Below the pieces are notes generated by a model, which was given only the letters and a program-made list of their open reading frames with translations, did not search any database and had not been told where the DNA came from. From Lingula anatina (lineage: Eukaryota > Animalia > Brachiopoda), in NCBI GenBank assembly GCA_051362555.1, contig CM120648.1, positions 2,643,721-2,707,720 on the forward strand: a DNA stretch of 64,000 nt, written 5' to 3'. A program made the translations under genes and the position numbers. This document shows, one piece after another, positions 15,306 through 60,292 of this stretch. The first letter of the stretch is position 1, and every line of letters begins with the position of its first letter.

Positions 15306-18300
15306 TGGCGCCGCCTAGACTGAATCTGTGACGTAACTATCTGTGCTTTTAAGCTGTTCTCAATAGTGCGGTCTCAAAACTTTGTCCAGTTTCTTGTTCT
15401 TTTTCCCTTCCCCGTTTCACTTGTTTGCATATTGTCTAGCGCACAAGGGTACGTTCTTAGACAATGCAAAAACTTGTGACGCCACACACTCCTTAGCACA
15501 CAATGTCAATTTGTGCTAGAAATCTGACGTCACGTAGCTCTCTTCCAGATAAATCTTCCAGCTCCTTTTTGCAGTCAAAATTGGGATTCGTCACGTGTTT
15601 TTATTCAATGTGTATACGTCGAGGGATAGTTTGAGTAGAAAAAAATTGTGAATAAATGTAAAACCAGTGTAGTATTTAACAAATTTTTACGGCCTACTGA
15701 GAAGTGGAAATAATAAGTGGAAATAATGTATGGATATCAGAAGACGTTTTACAATAAAATTATTGAAATAGAGTGGCGTTTGATTTGAAGATAAAGATCG
15801 GCATTGACTGTTATTTTTCACCTTTGAGTGTGGATTGCCAATGGAAGTAAGAGAAACATGACAGTTGACATCCGATGGAAGATGTGCGATGGATTAATTC
15901 CCGGACAGATGCTTTTAACAGGAGTAGATGTCCCCATGTTAATGCCAATGTCTCTGCACATACACAATAGAAAAAGTATCTTTAAAAATACAAAAGAGGT
16001 AAACATTTTATTTTCTTTTATTTCCCAAATCCCAGTCAGCTTGGACCACAGAAAGTACTCCTGCATTTAAATTTCCTAATCAGTTGACTGCTTTTGCTGC
16101 AAGAAATGACACTAAATCTTCACATATCTCAAAATGAATAATTATCTTCTGGAGTGCAAACAGGAAGATTGTAGAGTACAAAGTGGAACTTTTTATAGCT
16201 GTACAAGTCCTGCCATTCTCACCAGTGTTACAGTCAGTTTAGGTCTGCAAATCCATAAATTCTTACAAAACTGGACTATCAAACTATAACAATATCAGTC
16301 AATGCTGAAGAATGGTAGTACAGGGACTACTTTAATATTGCATGTTACAGAAAACAAATTGACTAGTAATAACATATAACTACCAGTGGTGTCTATACTG
16401 AGTTTAGAACAGGCACAAACTGGATTTTTTTATCCTTTTTTAAAATACAAAATTTCAGGTCTACGAACATATTTTTCAAGATGTATCACTCATCCAAAAT
16501 GTGGTTTCCAGCAAAACACTAACTTCTCTTACGTAACATTAATTTTTTTAGTAATAAAAATTAAACCATTTTGGGGTAATTTTATCCTGGTATTGGTACA
16601 GCTGTAATCCCACAAAACTACCAATGTCTACTGATACAACAATATACTATTTCATAAAAACCAAAGTATTATGAAAAATGGACACTTCTACCCATGTTAG
16701 AACTTCTGTACATAGCACCAAAATTCCCTGTTGCCTTTCATCATTCAAAACTGTCAAACACACCAGAGTTTCTGTGATAATACTTAAAGAAAGTTTCATG
16801 TTCTACAGGTTAGCATGCCTTCTTTACCAATTCTCTGATACAAAAGGTATTCTATTTCTATGGTACTATTCCAAATGAGACTTTCTTTTAGCATTAAGAT
16901 ATAAAATTCGTTTACAGTGGACACTTTCAAAACACATGAAAATCATTTTCTGCTAATTTAAGTTGATCACGATGTACCAAAAGAAAAGCATTTTACTTGT
17001 TCATATTGGCAAACAATAACCACTTGATCCTGCTTACTAACAGCGCAACATAGATGAAATAAATTATGTGAAAGTTTTCCCATGAAAGAGGGGAGAATGT
17101 CTATAAAATATATAAATCACTTCAACTTGTACATTAACCTATCTGTGGGCATTTCCTGTGACCTAATTTAAATGAAATGATTTCATTTGAAGGTTATTAA
17201 CAATTTCATACATAATGGGATACTGAAATGTGACTGAAAACATTGCCTTTCAAATTTTTACTAAATACAAGGAGCACTGTATTCAGGATATGTTCTAAGA
17301 GCTACAAAGACAAAGAAAAACAAGTAGATTATCTTGCATAGAATTATCATTAATTAAAAGCCCAGTTAGGCTAGATTTTGATTATATAAATGCCCAGACA
17401 AAGAATGAGATTCTAAACTTAACCGTCCTCAAATAATTTACAGTTATTCGTGAAATTATTCTAGATTTGTATAACAGTTCTATGAGAAGTTTCTACAAAA
17501 TAAAGATTAAAAACTTTTGACACTAAAAATGAGCTACCATAAAAAAAGTTCACTTCTTAGGAATCTTCACTTTCTGCTTTTTCCCCCTCTTTGAGTATTA
17601 ATATATCAATATTTTCCCCAGGAAAATAGAAATTAATTGCATAGCAAAGTAATATATAATAAATGCACTTTAAAAATTTTTTCTCGTACACTTATAATCC
17701 AGACTTTTATCACTGAAATATGGAGCTTTTTTGACATAAAATGTAACACTGCTGTTTGTCAGTTGAATCCTGTAATGTTTAACTCTTATTGCTAACCATG
17801 ACACAGCCAAACAAAGCTGATTGTATTTGGATGTGAAGTAGATTGCGTTAGATGTGATAAGGTGCTCAATGTAGCAATGTGTTAGTTGTGATAATGTGTT
17901 GCAATGTGTTAGTTGTGACACTATTTATGGACACAGATTTCTCACTAACTTAAAAAATGTTGTTAATGATACACTTAATCAACAAATACCTTATTCTAGA
18001 TTATTTGTAAATCTGTCAATAACATCCAGTAAAGTCTCACTTTTTCTGTCCAAAAATTCAAAATATTACATTCACCACAAAATACTGGAAAGAATTGCAT
18101 CTGTAATGTTTTCTTTTCTAACAAAATTAGAGTTAAAACAGTACATTCTATCATCTAATTGAACACTGTAGGTGTATCAAGAGATGTCATTGTGGCCTGA
18201 TTAAAATCTTTGAGACAAACTGCAGTGTTTCCATGGCAACTTGGAATATAACAAACAACACATTAAGTAGCACATCAGAAGAATTGCATCACACTTGGAC

Positions 18301-19308
18301 GTTTCTATTCCCATTTTCTGACAGCAGTAACATCAAATGTTAGCAGAGAAACATAAAGCATAAGACCATAAAAATTGTATATACATATCATGTGGTTATA
18401 TGAAGCAGCAAATGTGCATAAATATTAAAGCAGATCCCAGTAAAGAATAGAAATAATAAACCACCACCACCAGACTCTGTGTATGTAGATAGTTAACACA
18501 GAGTGAAGTACTGAACACAGTACTATATCACATTATATCATAGTGTACACTGGCATGGAGGTAAAAAGGTATGATATCAATAGACAAATGGTAACTGAAT
18601 GTGTTATTTGTTGTTAACATCTTGACAAAACATGAGTCTTGAAGGGATGATTTCCAAACATTTTGTGCAATGAAGTCAGTCAAGTACAAAAGTTTTTTTT
18701 CTTTTTTTTTTGGTTGATGGACAGTTCTTAAAGTTACAAATATTCTATTGGTATCATAATTAAGGTTGTGATTCATTAGATTCTATCTGAATTGAGTTAG
18801 TTCTGTTCCATGCCAATGCAGATATAATATATAGAAGCACACATAGTGTGTGTAAATATGACACACATGGTGTGTAGTTTTATCTCTCGTCCACTGACGT
18901 AGGTGGAGGTGGGTTAGAAGACACAGGGCAGTGTAAGAAAAGTGAGATCAAGATTGAAGCATCTTTGATTAAACCAAAAAGAAAACAAAAATCCCCAATG
19001 AGATAATTATTTCTCAGTGTGTCTTTTGGATTATACAGAAAAGTGAGATTGTGTTAAACTGAAAAAGCAGTTCTAACTTAGTACTCATTATTTTCACAAT
19101 AAATAAAAAATAAATAAATAAATAAAATAAAATAAAATAAAATAAAATAAAATAAAATAAAAAAATTAAATACAAAAATGGGTCCCAGTACTGAAAGAAG
19201 CTAAAATCTGTTAGATGACTCAATCTGGGTCCTAGGATTATTTTGATTCACTTAATGCCGATGATGCAATTCTTCCGACCTGCCCATTACCCAACATGGG
19301 ACAAGGCT

Positions 19309-19464
19309 CTAAGGGTCGACAAATGAAATCATGATATATCGTGTTCCGCTGGTCGTTGTCAGGCCTTCGTGGTAATGAGTTAGACGGCCAGGGTGTAATA
19401 TAGCCCATCCTCGTTTTGTGTCCGATACTGCACAATTTTGTCGTATAAAATTGCTGCCTCCACC
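19309..19464 (-). CDS. PLOD: PLOD terminal exon 20b (distal): [51 protein letters not shown]
   Basis: Acceptor ccttctctaattcag, 156 nt ending in TAG, phase 0; 38/51 aa identical to 20a. Confidence 0.92.
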
Positions 19465-22400
19465 CTGAATTAGAGAAGGAGGGAGACAGTTGGGTTAAAT
19501 TGCTTCAATTGTGTTTGTTGTGCTGTGCTTGGATTGTGTTCTCTCATCCCACCTAGCACAATATTGCTCTAACTGACACTGTATAAGACCTTAATACTAT
19601 TTATAACCAGTGTTTTGGGCTGTCTTACAAATAGCAATTCTTCAGTCTTCCAGGATATTTCACTGAAATACAATGTGCTGAGCTCTCACACCTAACACAA
19701 TATAATATAACTGCAATCTCAAGGCACAACTAACACAATCAAAGTGGAATATGACACCCTTCTGTACATCTCGCACAAGATGCTGTAAAAAATATCAAGA
19801 TGTTGTCATATCTAAAACGGGTACACTTTCCCTCCAATAGCACCTTTCGATAGCACGCTTGTAAAACATAACCTACACAGATTGCATCTATTTACTGTTT
19901 TGGAATGGTATCATCTCTCTTGTGTATGCCATGGAAACTGCTGTACAATAGTTACATAGAAAATAGAAATATCTATATCATAAATACATACTGTATATAT
20001 ACTAGCATGGATAATTAAATACACATATGCTTCCAAAGCAATTGTGGCATATTGCTGCAAATAGTGAAGAAATCTCAAGTGCACATTTCAAAGTTCTCCG
20101 GCGTAGTTGGGGTCTCTTCTCGTCTTGAAGTTGGATTTCTCTGGCACGGAGTATTTGAAATCCTACAACTTGACAGATCTCTTTTGTGTCTTTTCTACCA
20201 ATAACTCTTGATTTAGAAGCTGATTGCCTTGCACAATAAAATATCTACATCAGCAGTAGCATTTACTAGAAGTTTGTACACCACAAAGAAAAAAGACTGT
20301 GAGAAAACCTGTCACCCATACAGAAAACACTGTATTATCAATATATATACTTTACTATAAATATTCCATTTTGCTATAAATAATGATATGAAATATAAAT
20401 CAAGGCATTCAGCTATTTTACCAAGTCCTAATCATTTTCCTAGAAGCCACCCTGACTATGAAATGTGAAAGCTACCCTGAATATGAATTATCTAGAGCCA
20501 GTATTAAGGATCCACAAAAGAGATCATGATATATCTTGTTCCCTTGGTAACAGTAAGTCCCTCGTGTAGGTGGGTCAGACGTCCTGGGCTGATGAGGCCC
20601 CAGCCGCGCTTCGTTTGTGTCACACTGCAGTTCTGGCGTACAAATCTTACACCGCCTCCCTGTAGAAACAACTGCCTTCAGTCATTGTGAACTATAGTGG
20701 CTGTCTTGCCTGACACAATTGTCACAATCAACACAATGTCTCTCATTTTTCCCATGTGCAACACCTGTCACACCTAACACAATTGACACAACCAAAACGA
20801 AGTCACACCTAACACACTTCCACTGTTCAAGACTTAAAACAAATGTTATGCAGCACTTTTAACAACCTCATTTGACTATGGCATTTTAAATCTAACATCA
20901 GACTCATGGCACAATTGCTAAGAAAAACTTTATAGAAAATCCATCCAACCATCTCTCACACACGCGCACACGTGCGCACACACACGCACACACACACACA
21001 CACACACACCAGGATAAGGCATTGCCACACTTCATGCCAAATACTTTACACTGCCATCTTTACCACAAGCAGCTAGTCAGATAGTCTTGGTGCCAGCTCC
21101 TTGGCACCTTAAGCTGTCCTCTCCAGCCACTAGACTAAATCAACACATTGGGAAGGATGGGAAATGCCAATTCATTAGTACAAAATACCGATAAATAAAG
21201 CTGAAATTAACAAAGCACTTTTGGGATAAATACATGGCACTGAAATAAAATGGATAAGGTTATAAGCTGCAGCAAAGGGAAAGCACTTTAACTGGCATGC
21301 TGGAGCAATCAAGCATGATATATCAAGCAAATTGCACTGAAAATATGATTAAGGAAAAAAATCAATATGTAAATAAAATCAATGAAATATGCATATATAT
21401 AAGATACTGCATATTATATTTACTAGATACTACAAAACAGACAATGACATACTACTTAAAGTACATAACAGTTTTATCATTCATCAAAGTGGTACACTGT
21501 AATACCACAATTTTACATGAAAGCCATATAGGAAGTAAAGCAGCTTTAAATACCGCATCAGCTAGTCAACAGGTAAACTTTTGCTGAGCAACACATGTAC
21601 GAACTTAGTGCTTTTTAGCTTACTCCCTAAGTTCACATCTGATTCAATGACCAAGTTTTGTGCCCAGTATATCACCTGTTGCAATTACATCAGCTAAGCA
21701 ATAATTAATAACAGTTTTATGTGCTGTTCACTTTATATAAGCAATAAAGATTGGCCGGGAATTCTAAGCTAGCAAAAACAACTCCCATATAACCACATTA
21801 GTTCACATCCTGTTCCATACTTCCTGTTAACTACTTCCTTGTTACCTACTTACCTACTTTTACCTACTTACTATCATCAAAATCTTGCCATATGTTGTGA
21901 GGAAAAGTTTTATGAACATATCACAGCCATACCTATGAAACTGGCAATGCACATGTAACACACCGTCACACCTAACACACTATCACATCTACCACATTGT
22001 CACAACTACCACACTGTCACATCTAACACACTGTCACATCTACCGAACTCCAGCACATACCTCATAATCAACACCAGGCGTGTTTAGAGCTATATTGATG
22101 GTATATGTTGAAGAATCATGATGTGGACGTAGACTTGGTTGTTCATCAGGCCTGTAGCGGACCACAAAGTTCATGACTGCATGTGGAGGCTGAAAATGTA
22201 GAATATTCCATAATATTACAATTTCTACCAAGTCTTGTTATCTTTACATACAGTCTTACATTTCTAATTTTACGGGGAATAAGACTTGTAAACAGAACAT
22301 GGCATTTTTGAATCGGTCACATTAAAAGCTCTTAGATTAAATACTGAAAGTGTACTATGACATACAAAAGCAACACATTTTGAAACATTTTCTACGAAAA

Positions 22401-24229
22401 AAGGCAGTAAGAAATCAGATTTGTAAAATATAGTTATTTGTATTTAAAATTCGGATATATCTATTAACATTTTTAACTAAAACAATTTGTATTGAAAGTT
22501 GGACATATATTTGTGCTTATTTTCAAAGAATTCACCAAACTTTACTCACGTCATGGTAATATCCTACAAACACCTTCTGCTGCACCGGCTGTACGTACAC
22601 ACGTAGGAAATGAAGCCAGTGTCGCTCAAAGCCCACTTGGTTCATGTGGATATCACGTGTTGGTACGTTCTCGTAACCTCCATCTAGACGAGAATCCTAA
22701 AAATACAACAGCACAACATTAACAAGGTCCCAATGCTGACTGAAAACATAATATCATATGTAACACTGTTTACTATTACAGTAACTTAGTGAACCTGTAA
22801 ATATAAAAACATTTCTGTGCTCAAAATAATATCACTTTTATACTGAGCATATAATACTTCATTATAATTCATCACTTTACAGTTGTACGTCGACAGGAAA
22901 CTCGAACTGCATTGTGGGAGGGGGAAAGAGCGTGAACTCATGGCGCGAAGGCTTTTGAACACAAAATAATGACTACCTGCTGTGTTTCAAGTTGCAGAAA
23001 TGATAGAAGGTATCGAGAAAGGTAATTTCCCGCTAATTTTACAATCATGGACCAGAGTGTGTGATCGTCGAGGTTATTCCCCATTATTCGTATACTCGCT
23101 GTTTTTGTTTTGCTCTATTTTTTCCCACAATGCAATTCTCACGCATGCGCGCAGCGATTTTGTAAGTATCTGTAAAGTGGTGAATGGGCATATAATACTT
23201 TTTGAATGTCACATGCTATCACACCCAACACAATGAATTCCATTCTGTCACACCTATCACAATGACATTATAATACTGTTTGAATGCCACGCACCTCATT
23301 CTTGCCATTGGACCACTGGCCAAACCCCTCCATCTCTTCTATCAGGTGTTGACAGAATGTTTCTGATAATACTGGGAACCAGTACACGTCAGGGCACGGC
23401 TGAAATAGCAGCACAATTTGTATAGCATACATAACATGACTTGATGTGGAAGGCTAGGATAGCAATTTCTTTCTTTTTTTTTTATACATATTTTTTTAAT
23501 TGAGAAGTCCACATTTTTTTTAATCTTAGATTTTAATATATAGATGTTCACTGGATGAAAAAGAAAATTCTCATCCCAGTTTTTACCATGTCCACTTCAT
23601 ATTCCTCCATCAGGACTCGGCTGTAGTTTTCATGGATGTATTTTTTCTCCCAGTCCTAGAGATATAGAAAATATAGACTAAATATTAACATGGAATAAAT
23701 CTGGATATGAATGAAAAATTTTTCAAGTAACAATCATGGCTAAGAAGTGCTTAAATTTAGTAACACTTCAAATAGCCCAGCCTCCTTTTGTAAACAAGCA
23801 ATACATTTTAAAATTTCATGCCTATGAATTCCATCTTGTCACACCTAACACAATGAAACATTCACTCTGTCACACCTACCACACTAGTACACTCACCATT
23901 GGGTTGCTGAACATCTCGTACATATCTGGGTGTGTACGCGTTGTGTCATAGTTATCACCGTCTATAAGATGGCCGTAGTTCAACTGGTTACTCACATACA
24001 TAAACATGTTCTAAAATAAATAAACAAAGACTTATCAGCATTTCATTATCTCACTGTTGAAGAGATTTTTTAGAGTTTTAACTTGAGTAATATAATACAA
24101 AACATAGTTGTTTCATTCTGAACTGAAGTGGACCAACATTTCTGACTTGTATCTTACTCCGACCCAATATCCTTGGTTATATTGCCAGACCACCGCCTGC
24201 TCTCTCTCTCTTCCTGCCTTATCCTTAAA

Positions 24230-24289
<60 letters not shown>

Positions 24290-27200
24290 GCCTACCTTGT
24301 CTCTCATGGTCTTACAGATGGCCATATCGTGGTCTAGGTGGTCATTCCTGTATCCTCCCTGCAGCTGTTTTATCTTGTTTCCTTGGATCAGGTAGACATA
24401 GCGTACATAGGGGACATTCCACAAGCCTCTGGAAATACAACATACTTATTCAATCAAATTTCAGAAATTAACAATAAATATAATACACAACCCCCACCGA
24501 CACATGCTCATTGACACACACATATTCACTAATCAAGCACTTTCAAGCACCTATTCTGTTAATGCTATGCTTTTACAGATATATTTTCTTTTAATAAATT
24601 TTTAATTCTATTACATTATAAATAATGTTTTTATTGTTACCTTATCCACCATATAACATACCTTTTGTTGGGGGGGGGGGGGGGGGGGGTGAGGGATAAA
24701 ATAACAAATTTTCTCTAAATTACATAATTTCACAATATCCATGGACTCACAACCAGAGTAACCACTAACACTTACATCCTGTGGCTGTTCACAATGTCCA
24801 GGTAATCTTCTGACCGGGCGTAGAAACCGTTACTGCTGAGTGACCCCCAGAAGTTAGACCACAGCTTGCCTGGCCGCGTAAACATGGGGGCGATGACTGA
24901 CCTGGAGGGTCAAAGTTCAAGGTCATAAGGCAAAGAATATCTACTTCTTTTGTTTGAAACAACTTGGTATAATTATACTGACATTTAGTTTCTCTTTTCA
25001 ATATTTATTGCTTTTTTCTTTTTATAATAAAAAAAATCACAACATTATACTGAAACAAAAGGCAACCTGAAAAAAAAGCCTTGGAAAAGCTGACCTTATT
25101 ATTTAAAATACCAAGTTGATTTGTAATCAATTGAAAATAGCCAAAATCGTTTTGTTGTCCTCTATAATGTGTGCAAGAAGAGCCTACCTGTTCTGTTCAA
25201 TGAGCAGTTGTAATGTCTTAGAGTTGTCAAGATGAGCCTCTGGCTCCAGAAACAAGTAATACTGGCAGTTCTTTTTCAAACAATGATCACTGGAACATGA
25301 AAGAAAGAAATAATGACACTGTCCAGAAGAAATACAATAAAAGTGTGAAGATATTGAAGTTGCAATGGAAATTCAGTGACAAACAATTCAGCCAGTTTAA
25401 TCCTGATCATGTGCGAATAGGTCCCTCCCCTCAAGTTTATATTAAAAAAATTAATACTTTGTTTTTATGAAAGGGAGCAAAAGACAACAAAACCACTTCC
25501 CATTCATTTTTTTCCAAGTGGTCACATTTTGACCTAATTTTCTTAGCACTGGAGGAAATTTTTCTCAAATCCACTCACATGCCCATATTCCTGGCATCAT
25601 ATGCATTGACCCCTCTCTCGGGTGGAACAGAAGTGAATGAGTTGTATTTCTTCTCATACTTGATCATAAAGTTTTTCACATCTTTGGCATGGAAGTTAGC
25701 CTAGGAAAAGAAGTTAAATACATATTTCATTTTAAAAAATATCCTTTCTCTCAGGAGCTTGCAATCATTCTGTTAAAAAGATGGATGTTCTCCAGAATAG
25801 TAGGTTGTTCTGATTTAGACCTGTATACTGAAAACATTTGGAAAGAATCCAAACTTCTCAATCTGATTTCATCCTTATTATCATTGAACTAAAAACTCAC
25901 ATTGTTGTATACAAACACATCCATTTTCTTCTTAGGGTATTGTTGCCCAGCAAGCTTCTCAAAGAACTCGGCTATAAAAGGCACGGGCTGGTCAATGAAG
26001 ACACCAACAAATACCGTGGGGTAATCCTGCTCCTGGGGGGATTAAATATATTGTTAATAATCTATTATAAAAAAATTGATACTCTTTAATTGTTTTTTGT
26101 ACAATTAAGGCTTCACCATTTTAAAATTCTAGCTCATTTCCAAGTTAAAATAAATTTCAAATGATATTATTACAACTACACATATATAAGAGAAATTATG
26201 AGACATTCATTTGAACTGCAATATATTTACAAATACAATGTTCTTCAAAAATGTTATGCTATGTATGCTTGTGAAACTTGCAAGAGAAGAAAAACTTTTC
26301 TGTGCTTTAATCCGCTAATAGTAAGTACTTTTTTGTCAGTTCCTTCCTGAATAGAGAATGGAATGGTTACTGATTGGAAAACCTGAGAATCTATACACAT
26401 TTGACAGCTATATCTAGGAGAAACCCAGCTTCTGCAGATTGGGCCTGTCTTTCCAAGAAGACAGAACACCAGCAAGTGCTGCCACCTAGTATTACCTCCA
26501 CCTCCTGAAGATTGATTTTGTCCTCCCCACAAGCAAGACAGCCCTGAGTGGGGGTCCAAGAATCTGCCAAATAGTTCCCCAACGTGTTGAACTGGGGCTG
26601 AGAGGAGGAACAAGAAAATACTAAAGAGTACAAGACAAGAGCAACTCAAGACAAACATATCCAACTGCCAGCCTAACCTGAAACCATCGTCATCAACAGG
26701 AAAATGAAAGGAAGCTAAAAGTAAAAAATCAGACCACACCCACGTGAAGAGAACAATTGCAACAAGAAAAAGGTTTTGGACTGCAAACTAAGACAAGCAA
26801 TGGTTAAGATAGATACAACCATATAGAAAATTATTGCAGAGAAATCATATTCCATTATTAGTGTTATTGAACTAAATGAGCAAAAAAGAAATCCCAAGAA
26901 GAAAAAGAAATGAGAAAAACAGAGAAAAAATAACAGAGGCAAAAATCACCATGTGGCTCTATTGTTAAAAGAAAGTAAAGGGCATGCAAGATCCAGGAAA
27001 AAGCATATAAAAGCAATTGTGCAGCTACGAAAGTCTGCTTGGCGTTTACAGGTGATAGAATTTCAAGCAGCCACACGCACACAAGTTGGGCTAACGCGAG
27101 GCACTAGGTGTTAAAAACATGCTGTTATCACCATGAACTACACCCTATACAGCAGCATTTCTACCTTGAATGTGCCTAGATTGATATAATCTTCTTTACA

Positions 27201-30135
27201 TGCAAGACAGCCATGGGTGGGTGTCCAGGAGTCGGCCAGGTAGTTCCCCAGCCCATCCAACCTGTGCTGAAATCAAAGGTCAAGCAAGGTTAAGGTCAGT
27301 CCATGTAGGTCAAGGTCAAAACTCCCATCAGTCTTTGCGCTTTGCTGCCAAAATGGAGGTGAGGTATGTCATGCACAGTCCTTGAAGTTAACTTTTTTTC
27401 ATTAAAAATGGGAATTCACTCCCCTAATCAAAAGCAGTAAGTATTACAGGGCATGCACAAATTTCCCTGAAAATAACAACATCATTGTGGTATATTGTGT
27501 CACTTTTGTCTTGAAAATACGGTAAAACTGCTGACATTGAAGGGTTAAACAAAATATGAAAAAGTTTTAAATATAATAATAAGTATTATCAATTACACCT
27601 TGCAGTTCATTTTTTGTGGAATTTCTAATGAACTAATTTAAATACGACTGAAAATTATTCTTTTTATGAGGTATAAATTTAATTCAAAGATCAAATGAAA
27701 TTGTTTAAACACTCCAGCATATAGTTCACTTAAGATAATTTATCATTAATAGGACTACTTAACAGCTTTAACACTTCTTAATCCAAGTAAATCTCACCTT
27801 AATGGGTCCATTGCCGTGAACCACAAGTGGCGTTGTACCTGTCTTCACATTGTACAGGTAACTGTTGGCACCTTTGAACTTGAGCGTCACTTCATCTACA
27901 GACAGGAACAAACAGTTTAATATTCTGTTGTACATAAGTGTCTACACTGACAGCTGGCTCGATTCCTTTTATCACACTTAAATTGTTCATATATACCTAT
28001 TGTGACTATTCTACATTTTCATGTCTTTTTAATTTAATTTAATTTTAATCAAATTAAGTTCATAATGTGATACATACTAAGTGAAACATGACAGACAAAA
28101 TGTGTTTTAGTTTCTTCCACTAAATAAATTCCCATGCTTTGTCTTATAATTACCCAGAGCTCCATTTAAATTCTGGAAAATCTCTCCTCTGGTGTCTAAC
28201 TTGATATTCCATTTTTTCTATATTAAAATAATTAATTTACAAGATAAATTCACTTATTAATTCATAATATTGGCTTCAGTTAATCAATAACTAAATTGAT
28301 AAATAATAACAAATTACACAAGTCTCATTTAATTTGATCTATAGACAACACAAAAGCAGCATTGCATAGGTCTGATGTTTTCATTGGATTATTCTGATGT
28401 CACCTTTAACAGAAATAAAGCACATTTTTAACAAGTCCCTAGTCAATCCTATCCCATCTCACCCTGAGGTTTTCATCCAAGAAGATGTTTGTATAAACCA
28501 GCTGGTCATCATCCTTGTCTCCAACTTCATTGTGGGTGATGATCTCGTAAATGTCAGGGGCGTAACCTATATATCCTAGAAATAAAACAGTATTATGTCA
28601 CAAATACTAGAAATACCAGTAATCCTAGAAATATGACACCAACTGTAAAATTTCAAGGGTACTCGTAATACTGATCAATGATGATATATAAATCAAAGCT
28701 TGTTATTCGTAATTAAGAGAATAAAATTATCCCATTATACAAAAACATGTATAAGGAATATGAGAGGCTCTTTGTACTAGAAAACTCCATGTAATTTCCA
28801 GGTTATTTAGTCAGAAATGTTGTAGAAAAGTTACCTCCTGAGTTCAAAAATCTTTTCTCGTTCATCTTCACTTCTGGGTATTTGTCCTGGAAGAAGAACA
28901 TAACATTAGGACCTTTTCTCTGATAAATTCCCAGCAATCACAGATTACCTACATTTGATGTTTAGTATATTAATTTGATAACTGCACTTTTGGATGCTTC
29001 CTAGGGGCACACTCCCAGTGAAACTTTTGATTTACATAGATCGATCCAACTTCATGGGGACTCTTGCTGAATGCAGTCAGATTAACTGAATGACACACCT
29101 TGAGCAGCAATGGGGTGAAAAATATTTGTGCATGTTTGGTTGCACTCAAAATGAAGTGAAACAGCTTCTAGAAGTAAGGCACACAGGACAGTTAATCACA
29201 CCTTAGCTCACAAAGAGAATAGTGAATGGGCGAGCTTCTGAAGGAGAGAGGATATTTAGGTTATCTGATTTCATTCAGCAAGAGTCCCTGCAGAGTTGGA
29301 TCGATCTACATGGAATAATATTTTCATTGGGAACCGTCCCTAAATCATCATGAGCCCAATGGCTGGCATAGTGTGTGGGTGATAGGGACCATTCCCACAG
29401 ATTTTTGGATTGATCCATCTCCCTGGGGAGTCTCACTAAATTGCTATCAACTTAAACAACTTAAATGTCCGTCACATCCATCATCTTTACCCCCTAGCTG
29501 ATTCGGGAGTTTCACCGATCCAGATGGATCAATCTAGGCATGGGAACCCAGTCACAGACGCAATGTGTTATCTACATCATGTAATACAATCAATCAAGGT
29601 TCTGCATTAAGTCCTTACCATAAGAGAGGCGTCCGGCCAGCAGAAACCCTCCGCAGAAAATACCACTCTGGCATTGAACTTTTTAAACATTTTCAAGATT
29701 TCCTGAGCTCCACCAGTAAAAATCACGTCATAGCTGTGAAGAGAAAAATGACATGAATCTTCAGTTATAATTACTTAACTGCAGGCCATTTTATAGGGTA
29801 TGCCACGCAAGTGTAAAACCAGAAATCAAAAATTATTTTTTTTTATAAAAGCATGATCACCATTCACATAAGGTTCAGAAAAATAAAACAATTACTAAAA
29901 GCTGAATAAGTGGCCTAATTTTTCTCAATGCAAGTTATTATAAAATCATCAACACCAAATCATAGTATCCATACCTGTCAGTAAACATAAGCACCAGGTC
30001 CTTCTTATCCTTGTATTTCTTCAAGCCTTCTTTCAGGAGGTTGATCTTGTACCCACCACCAACGGACACTGCCATGTCTCCGCCTCTCCACTCCTTCCCC
30101 ATACCTAACACCTAGAGGCATCATCATCATCATTA

Positions 30136-30209
<74 letters not shown>

Positions 30210-31259
30210 GGGACCATTCCCAGAGCCTATCGTACTAACTTTGGATCGATCTAACTCCAAGGAGATTCTCACTAAATTGCTATCAAGTTAAGCAGCTTAC
30301 TAGTAGATGTCTGTCACACCCACTGAAGCTGCTAGGGGGTAATTAACTTTGTTTAGCAGCTTCAGTAGGGGTGTCAGACATCTAAGCCATTTAAGCTAAA
30401 AGGAATTTAAAGAGAAAACCCTTCAGAGACAGATCGATCCTGTTAGATCGATCTAGGCATGGGAATACAGTCTTATTGTTGTTGTTTTTGTTATTATTAT
30501 TATTAATTTCATCATAATTATTATCACAAGGTTTTTGGGAAGAATATATGACAAGATGATTGTCACAATTTTTGTATCTTTGAGCTAAACATAAATCACA
30601 GGGGAATAGCAAGTAAGTCAGGTGACAAATATACGCCCACTGTCCAATATGCAGCAATTTTTCATTTTCTTCAATTTAATGTCGGGGAAGGATGATGAAT
30701 AAAAATCCAATTCCAATGTGTTTAAGACTGAACAATAACTATAAAGCCAAAATGTCTGCATTGCCTTACAGCTTCCTTCCTACACATAACTCCGGTCAAC
30801 CGACCCACGTCTCACTAAAAAACTATTTCCTTTTCAAAGTTCACCTAATGTTAGACTGTGGTATGCCAGAACAGAAGGAAAAAAAATTCTACACAATGCT
30901 TCATTGTTCAAGGTAGAATTTACTTTTATATTCTGTGACTCTTGCGTCATTATCTTAACTGATAAATGGTGAAAGGGAAAAGTTCAGGCTAATGCTAGTG
31001 AAGTATTTTGCTACTCAGTACTGGGCAGTGGAGCCCCCGTGAATTAGTAGTCTGTAAAAAGTGTTTATATAGTTAAAGGTCACATGGAGTAGACACTAAA
31101 ATAGTCCAGCTCACAGTAATTCCAAAGCACTGATTCCAGAGGAAATGGTTCATCTCCCCACATCAAACAGGTTCATTTTCACCAAGTATTACTACCACTA
31201 TTTACAACTTAAAGGAAGTGTGTTTGCCTGTGCGCATGTGTATGTTTGTGTCTAGTGAC

Positions 31260-31298
<39 letters not shown>

Positions 31299-31564
31299 AG
31301 AGGGAGAGAGAGGAGCCGGGGGAGGGGGTGTAAAAACTAACCTCCACATCCAGTCCATACTTGTTTGCTGACCTCATGTACCTCTTGAATCCATCAGTTT
31401 CGTCCGAGGCCACAGTGACCAGCAGGAGGCCTGTAAGGTGAAGAAAATGTTAATATATTATGTTGATTACTGATCTACCTCACACTATGACAAAATACAA
31501 TATTCAATATCTTAATTGGTTAAATGTCCCCTGTAGAGTGATAAATACTATCTGTAGTTTAACA

Positions 31565-37600: not shown

Positions 37601-38700
37601 AACAACAGCCTTATTATAACACCAAACAGTCCCACCCTCCTCCTCCTCCATATAAAACTCACTTAACCTGGGGGCCATTTCACCCGAGAATAAAAGATGG
37701 AAAATTAATCAAATTCCTTTGTGGAACTGCCCCCTGCACAATTGTTTGTTGTTATTAGCTGTAAATGTGTAAAATTAAGAACTAAACTAGCCAACAGTAT
37801 CAAATACTACACTCACTTGCCAAGTAAAGTCTAAAACCACATTCAATATCACATCTTAATCTTTCCCCCAAAGTAAATTGTTTTATCCAGCCCCCTTTAT
37901 CCATTAATCTTATCCAGGGATTGACATTAAGGGCGGCCCACTGGCCCTGGGCTACTGAAAACCAACCTAGGGCCATTGAATCGCTGGGGTCACTGGCCCA
38001 AAGAGCAAGTAAAATGTCATGTACCAAATAACCCTTGCAATATTTACAGATATCTCAGGCATATCTCAGTACTGAAAAAAATATTGTCAGGCCTTAATTG
38101 TTATCAATCTTACAAATAACTTTTTTTTTTGTCTCCATTCTATATTTTCTTTTTGCCTTGGGTCAAAATGTCTGTATTTGAGTTTCAAAAGTCATTCACC
38201 ACGAGAGAACTATATATTTGGAGATATTTAACAAGTACGGTTAACTGAGGCCATGCGGTTATCAATTATTTCCGTCTAGCTCATTTGCATCTGTCAAACC
38301 ACAACGCCACCGGCAAGAAACTTTTAAAACTACTTTCTACTTACATTTACAATTGCTTTAAAGTTATATTAAGAATTTTAATTCAAATCCTACAAAAATG
38401 CAAACGGGTTGAAATTCATCCTTCTTGTTCTGGTCCGCGAGTTTGGATCAAGTGGATCAGATTTCTCGCGACTTTGAAAAAGTTTGCTGTTTCGCACGTA
38501 CGCAGAACTCGTTCGGGGCACTTCTAAACTTCACGTTTTACTCCATCCATGAGTAAAGCATGATCGCATAAAACTATCAGTAGATACGTACCATCATCCA
38601 CGCTCGATGAGTGAACTCCAATGCTAGGCGAACTCCATGGTGGGAAGAAAACAAAGAAAATCGGCAGACACACCATAAAGAGTCTACTGATCAACGCCAT
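19309..38700 (-). CDS. PLOD: Procollagen-lysine,2-oxoglutarate 5-dioxygenase (multifunctional lysyl hydroxylase/glycosyltransferase), about 737 aa, 20 exon positions
   Basis: Phase-consistent GT-AG exons: 38592-38700 (signal peptide), 31342-31430, 29975-30111, 29619-29733, 28835-28886, 28463-28575, 28154-28217, 27798-27895, [27165-27266 or 26496-26597], 25901-26032, 25579-25700, 25188-25289, 24776-24901, 24296-24428, 23897-24010, 23587-23655, 23295-23399, 22550-22696, 22061-22189, [20504-20659 or 19309-19464]; total 2214 nt. Motifs: [77 protein letters not shown]. Confidence 0.97.
20504..20659 (-). CDS. PLOD: PLOD terminal exon 20a (proximal): [51 protein letters not shown]
   Basis: Acceptor tgtttctacag, 156 nt ending in TAA, phase 0 matching exon 19. 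Confidence 0.92.
22880..23160. mobile_element. CpG-rich insertion with internal inverted repeats (MITE-like), PLOD intron 17
   Basis: GAACTGCATTGTGGGA (22904-19) and TCCCACAATGCAATTC (23123-38); composition differs from the flanks; boundaries approximate. Confidence 0.4.
24231..24289. repeat. (ATT)n microsatellite just downstream of the PLOD exon 14 donor
   Basis: Seen directly. Confidence 0.95.
26496..26597 (-). CDS. PLOD: PLOD exon 9b (duplicated exon, copy B): [34 protein letters not shown]
   Basis: Acceptor ttcctcctctcag, 102 nt, donor GAG|gtaata, phase 0/0; 22/34 aa identical to copy A. Confidence 0.9.
27165..27266 (-). CDS. PLOD: PLOD exon 9a (duplicated exon, copy A): [34 protein letters not shown]
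   Basis: Acceptor tgatttcag, 102 nt, donor AAG|gtagaa, phase 0/0, no stops; paralogous to 26496-26597. Confidence 0.9.
29004..29341. mobile_element. MITE-like element, GATCGATC-core family
   Basis: Imperfect TIRs (GGGGCACACTCCCAGTGAAA / TTTCATTGGGAACCGTCCC), internal inverted GATCGATCCAACT / AGTTGGATCGATC, TA/TAA flanks; related copy at about 59189-59425. Confidence 0.65.
29384..29553. mobile_element. MITE-like repeat (GGACCATTCCCA...CTAGGCATGGGAA family)
   Basis: Shares both ends with the copies at 30210-30473 and 35347-35407. Confidence 0.55.
30136..30209. repeat. (AAT)n/(ATT)n fold-back microsatellite
   Basis: About 15 AAT units abut about 9 TAT units, which are self-complementary. Confidence 0.9.
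30210..30473. mobile_element. MITE-like repeat, same family
   Basis: GGGACCATTCCCAGAGCCTATCGTACTAAC...GATCGATCTAGGCATGGGAATACAGTC, with an internal hairpin CTGAAGCTGCTA/TAGCAGCTTCAG. Confidence 0.6.
35347..35407. mobile_element. Internally deleted 60-bp derivative of the same MITE family
   Basis: The left and right ends of the 30210 element are joined directly. Confidence 0.55.
35564..36109. mobile_element. Young MITE, probably PIF/Harbinger (Tourist-like), in PLOD intron 1
   Basis: Near-perfect TIRs of about 154 bp (GAGCGCATTCTCAACG...CGTTGAGAATGCGCTC; 1 mismatch and an 11-bp indel), flanked by TTA on both sides (35561-63, 36110-12). Confidence 0.88.
37336..37508. mobile_element. MITE of about 173 bp with 14-bp TIRs CTGGGGTAGCGCTA
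   Basis: Perfect TIRs, TGTAC direct repeat on both flanks, second copy at 55423-55597. Confidence 0.75.

Positions 38701-42629: not shown

Positions 42630-60292
<17,663 letters not shown>

Follow-up and report, generated by a model that had tools for sequence, protein, structure and literature searches.

A 64,000-nucleotide stretch of the Lingula anatina genome (GenBank assembly GCA_051362555.1, contig CM120648.1, positions 2,643,721 to 2,707,720; hereafter the window) carries a PLOD gene on its minus strand, from 38700 to 19309 in window coordinates. The gene is composed of 20 exons when one copy is counted for each duplicated pair, and the two pairs are exons 9a/9b and the terminal exons 20a/20b. 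These pairs are old and every copy has been under selection. In addition, 20a and 20b are both spliced into transcripts, at levels that differ between samples. We consider it moderately likely that exon 9 and the last exon of this one brachiopod gene were each duplicated long ago, that the resulting forms differ in how the enzyme is tuned rather than in whether it is active, and that the exon choices are linked to the sample.

The PLOD gene and its duplicated exons

The gene model consists of the following features, listed in the order of transcription. Residues here and below are numbered according to human LH3, and GT, AC and LH denote the glycosyltransferase, accessory and lysyl hydroxylase domains.

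38592 to 38700, minus strand: coding part of exon 1 (signal peptide), placed by tblastn with a RefSeq isoform and by its donor site.
27798 to 31430, minus strand: exons 2 to 8 (GT domain), placed by the spliced model, tblastn, the PF25342 match and reads across the exon 7-8 junction.
27165 to 27266, minus strand: exon 9a, 102 nucleotides, equivalent to LH3 260-293, the dominant form, placed by the model, the LH3 alignment and junction reads.
26496 to 26597, minus strand: exon 9b, 102 nucleotides, nearer the consensus, likely the minor form, placed by RefSeq isoform X3 and exon-shaped depth in runs X8 and X9.
22061 to 26032, minus strand: constitutive exons 10 to 19 (AC and LH domains), placed by the model, RNA reads and alignments to LH3.
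20504 to 20659, minus strand: exon 20a, the proximal terminal exon, 156 nucleotides with a TAA stop, placed by the model and exon 19-20a junction reads.
19465 to 20503, minus strand: stretch between 20a and 20b, likely 3' untranslated region (UTR) of 20a transcripts, judged from depth and a hexamer scan.
19309 to 19464, minus strand: exon 20b, the distal terminal exon, 156 nucleotides with a TAG stop, placed by exon 19-20b junction reads and loose read ends carrying 20b sequence.
16500 to 19308, minus strand: long 3' UTR, likely shared by both terminal forms, judged from RNA coverage and the hexamer scan.

Exons 2 to 20 were positioned at AG/GT boundaries, and each of the four exon combinations gives one open frame of 700 amino acids from exon 2 onward. 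Because exon 1 was located at 38700-38592, the numbers 9 and 20 for the duplicated exons are correct. The predicted protein matches PF25342 (GT_PLOD, E 8e-113) and PF03171 (C-terminal 2OG-Fe(II), E 4e-11). A tblastn search with the RefSeq protein found no further exon copies within the window. A single-sequence AlphaFold model reached a pLDDT of 33.9 and was not used.

A first-pass annotation of this DNA described two tandem pairs, of 102 and 156 nucleotides, with open frames and matching phase, and we confirm this description for all four exons on the minus strand. Both 9a and 9b are phase 0 at each end and are flanked by AG and GT, whereas 20a and 20b begin in phase 0 after an AG acceptor and reach a stop within their 156 nucleotides. 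The canonical splice sites assigned to all four exons are therefore present at both ends of 9a and 9b and as the acceptors of 20a and 20b, but the latter two, being terminal exons, have no donors.

The copies have diverged considerably. Exons 9a and 9b are identical at 67 of 102 nucleotides and 22 of 34 amino acids, and 20a and 20b at 100 of 156 nucleotides and 38 of 51 amino acids. By blastn, the introns around the copies do not align to each other, save for a dispersed minisatellite. The proportions of synonymous and replacement differences (pS and pN) are 0.70 and 0.24 for the exon 9 pair (dS 2.06, dN 0.28) and 0.82 and 0.20 for the exon 20 pair, where synonymous sites are at or near saturation. 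Fisher tests indicate purifying selection on both pairs (p 8e-5 and 7e-12, respectively). Since replacement sites have been kept while synonymous sites have approached or reached saturation, both duplications are old and selection has acted on all four copies.

The first-pass annotation also raised the concern of an assembly artefact, which here would mean that two haplotypes had been placed side by side. The species is polymorphic and a second, partial RefSeq model lies on another contig, but the copies are only 64-66% identical and have unrelated flanks, whereas read alleles differ by a few percent. Moreover, 20a and 20b are both joined to exon 19 within a single RNA run (X1). We regard an assembly artefact as effectively ruled out.

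Isoforms, reads and the layout of the two choices

A RefSeq protein labelled Lingula anatina matches exon 20a with 100% identity. All five members of the corresponding RefSeq cluster were examined, and they include isoform X1 (9a+20b), isoform X2 (9a+20a) and isoform X3 (9b+20b). The other two members are a divergent fragment and a partial, identical model of 295 amino acids that contains 9b and is located on another contig, which is likely an uncollapsed haplotype. The combination 9b+20a is missing from all five.

RNA support was sought in raw runs deposited under the same species label (labelled X1 to X9, which are distinct from the RefSeq isoforms X1 to X3). Seven of the nine were examined, leaving out X5 and X6, and 6-30% of each run was read. 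Joining of exon 19 to 20b is evidenced in six runs, with 6, 1, 3 and 25 junction reads in runs X1, X4, X7 and X2, and with loose ends carrying 20b sequence in runs X3 (22) and X8 (5). Joining of exon 19 to 20a is seen in runs X1 (8 reads, 5 starts) and X3 (11 reads, 8 starts), and no such junction reads are present in runs X8 and X9. Two read variants occur within 20a, each of them synonymous. Both copies of the terminal pair are spliced in.

When pooled, reads for 20a and 20b number 19:28 in runs X1 and X3 versus 0:8 in runs X7 and X8 (p 0.04), although the reads are not independent and the zero for X7 is derived from a bin depth of 0.11. The 20a junctions come from runs of study P1 (X1, X3), and coverage of 9b comes from runs of study P3 (X8, X9).

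Exon 9a is joined to exon 8 by 15, 0, 4 and 23 reads in runs X1, X4, X7 and X2, and to exon 10 by 11, 0, 6 and 16 reads in the same runs. No joint indicating inclusion of both 9a and 9b, or skipping of exon 9, is found among the junctions listed. Depth over 9b is exon-shaped in run X8, where the two bins that include 32 and 70 nucleotides of 9b collect 66 and 141 bases, equivalent to two reads and possibly to one pair. Run X9 has about 6-7 reads on 9b and zero depth in the adjoining intron bin, and the body of 9b has no reads in runs X1 and X3. A depth of 0.37 in the 9b bin of run X1 had been taken as 9b use, but finer bins place those reads in the intron. Compared with 9a, exon 9b is probably the lesser-used alternative.

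The terminal pair has the layout of alternative last exons: one donor serves two acceptors 1.2 kb apart, both of which are used. Exons 20a and 20b are not internal cassettes, as each carries its own stop and ends the protein, and for this reason they are automatically exclusive in protein, with no need for a dedicated pairing mechanism. In runs X1 and X2, the stretch separating 20a from 20b has a depth of 2.1-5.6, compared to 0-1.0 in intron 19, and RNA coverage continues to the edge of the examined stretch at 16500. The hexamer scan found no canonical poly(A) hexamer between 20a and 20b, and the first ATTAAA and AATAAA lie at 16336 and 16022. This read-through depth, together with the lack of a hexamer before 16336, suggests that transcripts choosing 20a would retain 20b unspliced in a long 3' UTR and share a distal poly(A) site with transcripts that choose 20b.

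The two copies of exon 9 resemble a classical mutually exclusive pair. They are separated by an intron of 567 nucleotides, and double inclusion and skipping would both keep the frame, so exclusivity of 9a and 9b would need regulation. In Dscam-type systems, mutually exclusive exons are selected by RNA pairing between docking sites and selector sequences. The best candidate duplexes from inverted-repeat and duplex scans were equalled in 4 and 3 of 60 shuffles, respectively, and are not better than shuffles given several tries. A donor element of exon 19, considered as a pairing partner, was equalled by 25 of 30 shuffles.

A 17-bp minisatellite family has 35 matches in the window against 2.05 expected, located at 17844-23883, 45798-46056 and 47230-47293. 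Copies directly follow the donor sites of exons 15, 17 and 19 and precede 20a and 20b, where they are UG-rich on the sense strand, and inverted copies are found in the 3' UTR (17844-17919). The neighbouring gene carries the family too, in opposite orientation, and reads derived from other loci also contain it. It is therefore probably a dispersed repeat, though one that might have a role in splicing. Intron 17 contains a segment with strong RNA coverage (22867-23186, depth 15-18 in runs X1 and X3, flanked on either side by loose read ends) that is likely a transcribed dispersed repeat. The upstream neighbour, at about 42633-52034 on the minus strand, encodes a P-type ATPase (PF00122, PF13246), presumably of the ATP13A/P5 type judging from its motifs.

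Residues in the alternative exons and swaps in other PLOD genes

Exon 9 begins right after the UDP-binding residue Lys259 and encodes the last GT helix (the continuation of helix 257-276), the linker to the AC domain with its Cys279-Cys282 disulfide, and the loop at 285-292. In LH3, His253, Gly256 and Lys259 bind Mn and UDP, according to the available text of PMC6082870, and their equivalents are encoded by the 3' end of exon 8 (27895-27798) rather than by exon 9. Indeed, exon 9 carries none of the catalytic residues named in the text available for that study. Antibodies to the region it covers reportedly reduce GT activity. The proposal of the first-pass annotation that each catalytic domain has its own switch is thus not supported in the sense of one switch per catalytic site. 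Exon 9a has Asp at a position where 235 of 259 homologous segments have Asn, and 9b is closer to the consensus. Exchanging the helix that follows Lys259 together with the disulfide linker might modestly change acceptor access to the GT site.

Exon 20 aligns to LH3 688-738. Leu715, His719 and Arg729 are kept by both 20a and 20b, so the Fe triad (His667, Asp669 and His719) and the dimer residue Leu715 are complete in all forms. The copies differ at 13 of 51 sites, including 691, 708, 711, 718 and four sites in the segment 694-702, which the accessible part of PMC9453210 assigns to the dimer interface. Exon 20a encodes Val691, Gly708, Ser711 and Leu718, and 20b encodes Ser691, His711 and Tyr718. 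Leu at 718 is also reported for LH2. Cys691 of the 2-oxoglutarate pocket, which is conserved in human LH1-3, is replaced in both terminal exons; it is present in only 224 of 251 segments and hence is not strictly required in invertebrates.

Ser711 is accompanied by Gly708 in 5 of 5 distinct segments, namely 20a, the Logan protein P0038 and three from choanoflagellates, and this pairing argues for compensation. On such comparisons, the data suggest that 20a is a compensated, working variant. The 20a/20b exchange at 691, 694-702 and 708/711/718 might alter cofactor or substrate handling by a hydroxylase that is still active. The choanoflagellate proteins (Hartaetosiga, Salpingoeca infusionum; P0021, P0096, P0110) have PLOD-like LH domains that share the rare set of Gly708, Ser711 and Leu718 with 20a. 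In a tree of 43 terminal segments, which is poorly resolved, 20a groups with them (95/80) on 51 columns, which we read as convergence and not descent. Changes at His700 of LH1, the equivalent of 711, reportedly lower activity. We found no paper on mutagenesis of His700 or His711 in the open-access literature, and nothing on it in one supplement text of PMC6082870.

Homologous exon swaps at the exon boundaries of the Lingula gene occur, by motif counts, in 19 of 33 annotated PLOD isoform sets, a sample biased by being picked for sets with several members and represented by predicted proteins with the DNA unseen. Exon 18, which encodes the capping loop (597-645; 22696-22550 in Lingula), is swapped in 17 of the 33, including sets from pancrustaceans (crustaceans and insects), the bivalves Mya, Mercenaria and Dreissena, and amphioxus, which has three copies. 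Swaps of the terminal exon are seen in Lingula, Lineus and Artemia, and a concatenated Darwinula model contains this exon twice. An exon 9 swap is found only in Lingula (1 of 33), where exon 18 is single. In the nemertean Lineus longissimus, two swapped exons, equivalent to exons 13 and 20, account for four RefSeq isoforms, and one of the terminal copies carries Gln711. The tree of terminal segments, which resolves little, does not support a common origin for the terminal pairs of Lingula and Lineus, as 20a and the Gln copy were joined in 0% of 200 bootstrap replicates.

The Lingula gene is most likely one instance of recurrent single-exon duplication in PLOD genes, and a device peculiar to this lineage is not supported. 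In the open-access literature, we found nothing relevant about Lingula PLOD or about exon duplication in the PLOD genes of invertebrates.

Two further observations concern other lineages. Arg occupies both positions corresponding to LH2 R680 and R682 in the PLOD proteins of Mya, Mercenaria and Dreissena and in two further proteins (P0171, P0177, P0184, P0267-P0270, P0274, P0154, P0156). The clam proteins, in which exon 18 is swapped as well, could possibly be convergent telopeptidyl hydroxylases. A Taenia asiatica model (P0006) fuses two tandem PLOD units, the second with Phe711, which represents duplication of a gene rather than of an exon with a change at the same site.

Competing explanations and known systems

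Several points weigh against the preferred reading of old duplications with tuned, sample-linked forms. Read counts are small, and no 9b junction is found among the junctions listed. The 3' end of the 20a mRNA is not among the reads, in which coverage was seen to 16500. Studies P1 and P3 differ in their sets of single-nucleotide polymorphisms (SNPs), so the differences between runs may reflect populations or cryptic species. Given these SNPs and runs without tissue labels, the run differences are not evidence of tissue regulation. Finally, 244 of 251 distinct segments, a set rich in fish LH3, retain His711, and 20a could therefore be impaired.

This last point is the basis for supposing that a 20a subunit is weak or dead as a hydroxylase but retains GT activity, and could reduce hydroxylation when it pairs with the other form in mixed dimers. 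The dimer residues Leu715 and Arg714 are retained, and residues other than His at 711 also occur in the Lineus and Taenia proteins described above. However, 20a keeps the metal ligand His719 and Arg729, 38 of its 51 residues are conserved despite saturated synonymous sites, and its set of residues at 708, 711 and 718 is identical in the choanoflagellate proteins, making this explanation rather improbable. We consider it slightly less probable still that the copies are functionally equal, each being kept simply because both are used, with the run differences due to genotype. Most differences do fall at variable sites, the P1 and P3 animals are genetically distinct, and tandem exon copies are frequent in PLOD genes. 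In contrast, two redundant copies would hardly have been retained for so long (dS about 2 or saturated) had their use not diverged to some degree, and the recurrent duplications are concentrated on LH-domain exons.

The first-pass annotation had favored a free two-by-two system, in which independent choices set glycosylation and hydroxylation separately by tissue. All four reading frames are open, Lineus shows that a full set of four forms can be annotated from two swapped exons, and run X9 combines 9b coverage with about one read pair on 20a. Against this stand the RefSeq cluster, which holds three of the four forms, the occurrence of 20a junctions and 9b coverage in separate runs, and the lack of a catalytic residue in exon 9. 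Short reads cannot phase exons 9 and 20, which lie 1179 nucleotides apart. We find free combination unlikely, and the preferred reading instead predicts three linked forms: 9a+20b, 9a+20a and 9b+20b.

We also put forward, tentatively and with considerable doubt, a broader idea: in animals that have a single PLOD gene, repeated duplication of individual exons (9, 13, 18 or 20, depending on the phylum) would have restored a diversity like that provided by paralogues, and the terminal exons of Lingula and Lineus lacking His711 would be convergent specificity switches. If so, 20a would specify a hydroxylase with a different substrate preference. Active-site residues are common to LH1-3, so the site preferences of these enzymes are only partly explained, as stated in the available text of PMC13382579. 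Natural swaps could then map what decides which lysines a PLOD enzyme modifies. Isoforms that are identical but for one exon of 34 or 51 residues amount to natural controlled swaps that are directly assayable. Recurrence across phyla also suggests that animals in general, and not vertebrates alone, have been selected for more than one PLOD activity. The significance is tempered by the presence of three isoforms in automatic annotation, by how common duplicated alternative exons are as a device, and by the putative nature of the functional difference.

Among known systems, human LH3 (PLOD3; PDB 6FXK, 8ZGC; PMC6082870, available text) is the same three-domain enzyme, and its residues His667, Asp669, His719, Arg729 and Leu715 are common to all Lingula forms. 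Unlike human LH3, the Lingula gene offers two alternatives for 260-293 and for 688-738, with Cys691 replaced in both and with His711 and Tyr718 replaced in 20a. Exon 13A of PLOD2 (LH2a/LH2b), as presented in the accessible text of PMC8055892, is a case of PLOD splicing that alters glucosyltransferase activity, and provides a precedent for tuning near the GT site. That exon is a 21-amino-acid insert in the AC domain that is included or skipped, whereas Lingula has duplicated exon pairs. The telopeptide determinants of LH2 named in the same text, R680 and R682, correspond to LH3 660 and 662, using an offset of 20 taken from the pairs D689/D669 and L735/L715 (PMC8055892, PMC5802723 and PMC6082870, as far as available). 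These positions lie in constitutive exon 19 (22189-22061), which also holds His667 and Asp669, and are E and P in Lingula, as in LH1 and LH3. Neither Lingula switch thus recreates the known LH2 mechanism, and a telopeptide switch like that of PLOD2 is not supported.

The mutually exclusive exons of P4HA1 are homologous duplicates. As in Lingula PLOD, they reside in a gene for a collagen-modifying Fe/2-oxoglutarate dioxygenase (PMC9189910, available text). P4HA1 is a different enzyme and its alternatives are internal cassettes, whereas one of the Lingula pairs is terminal.

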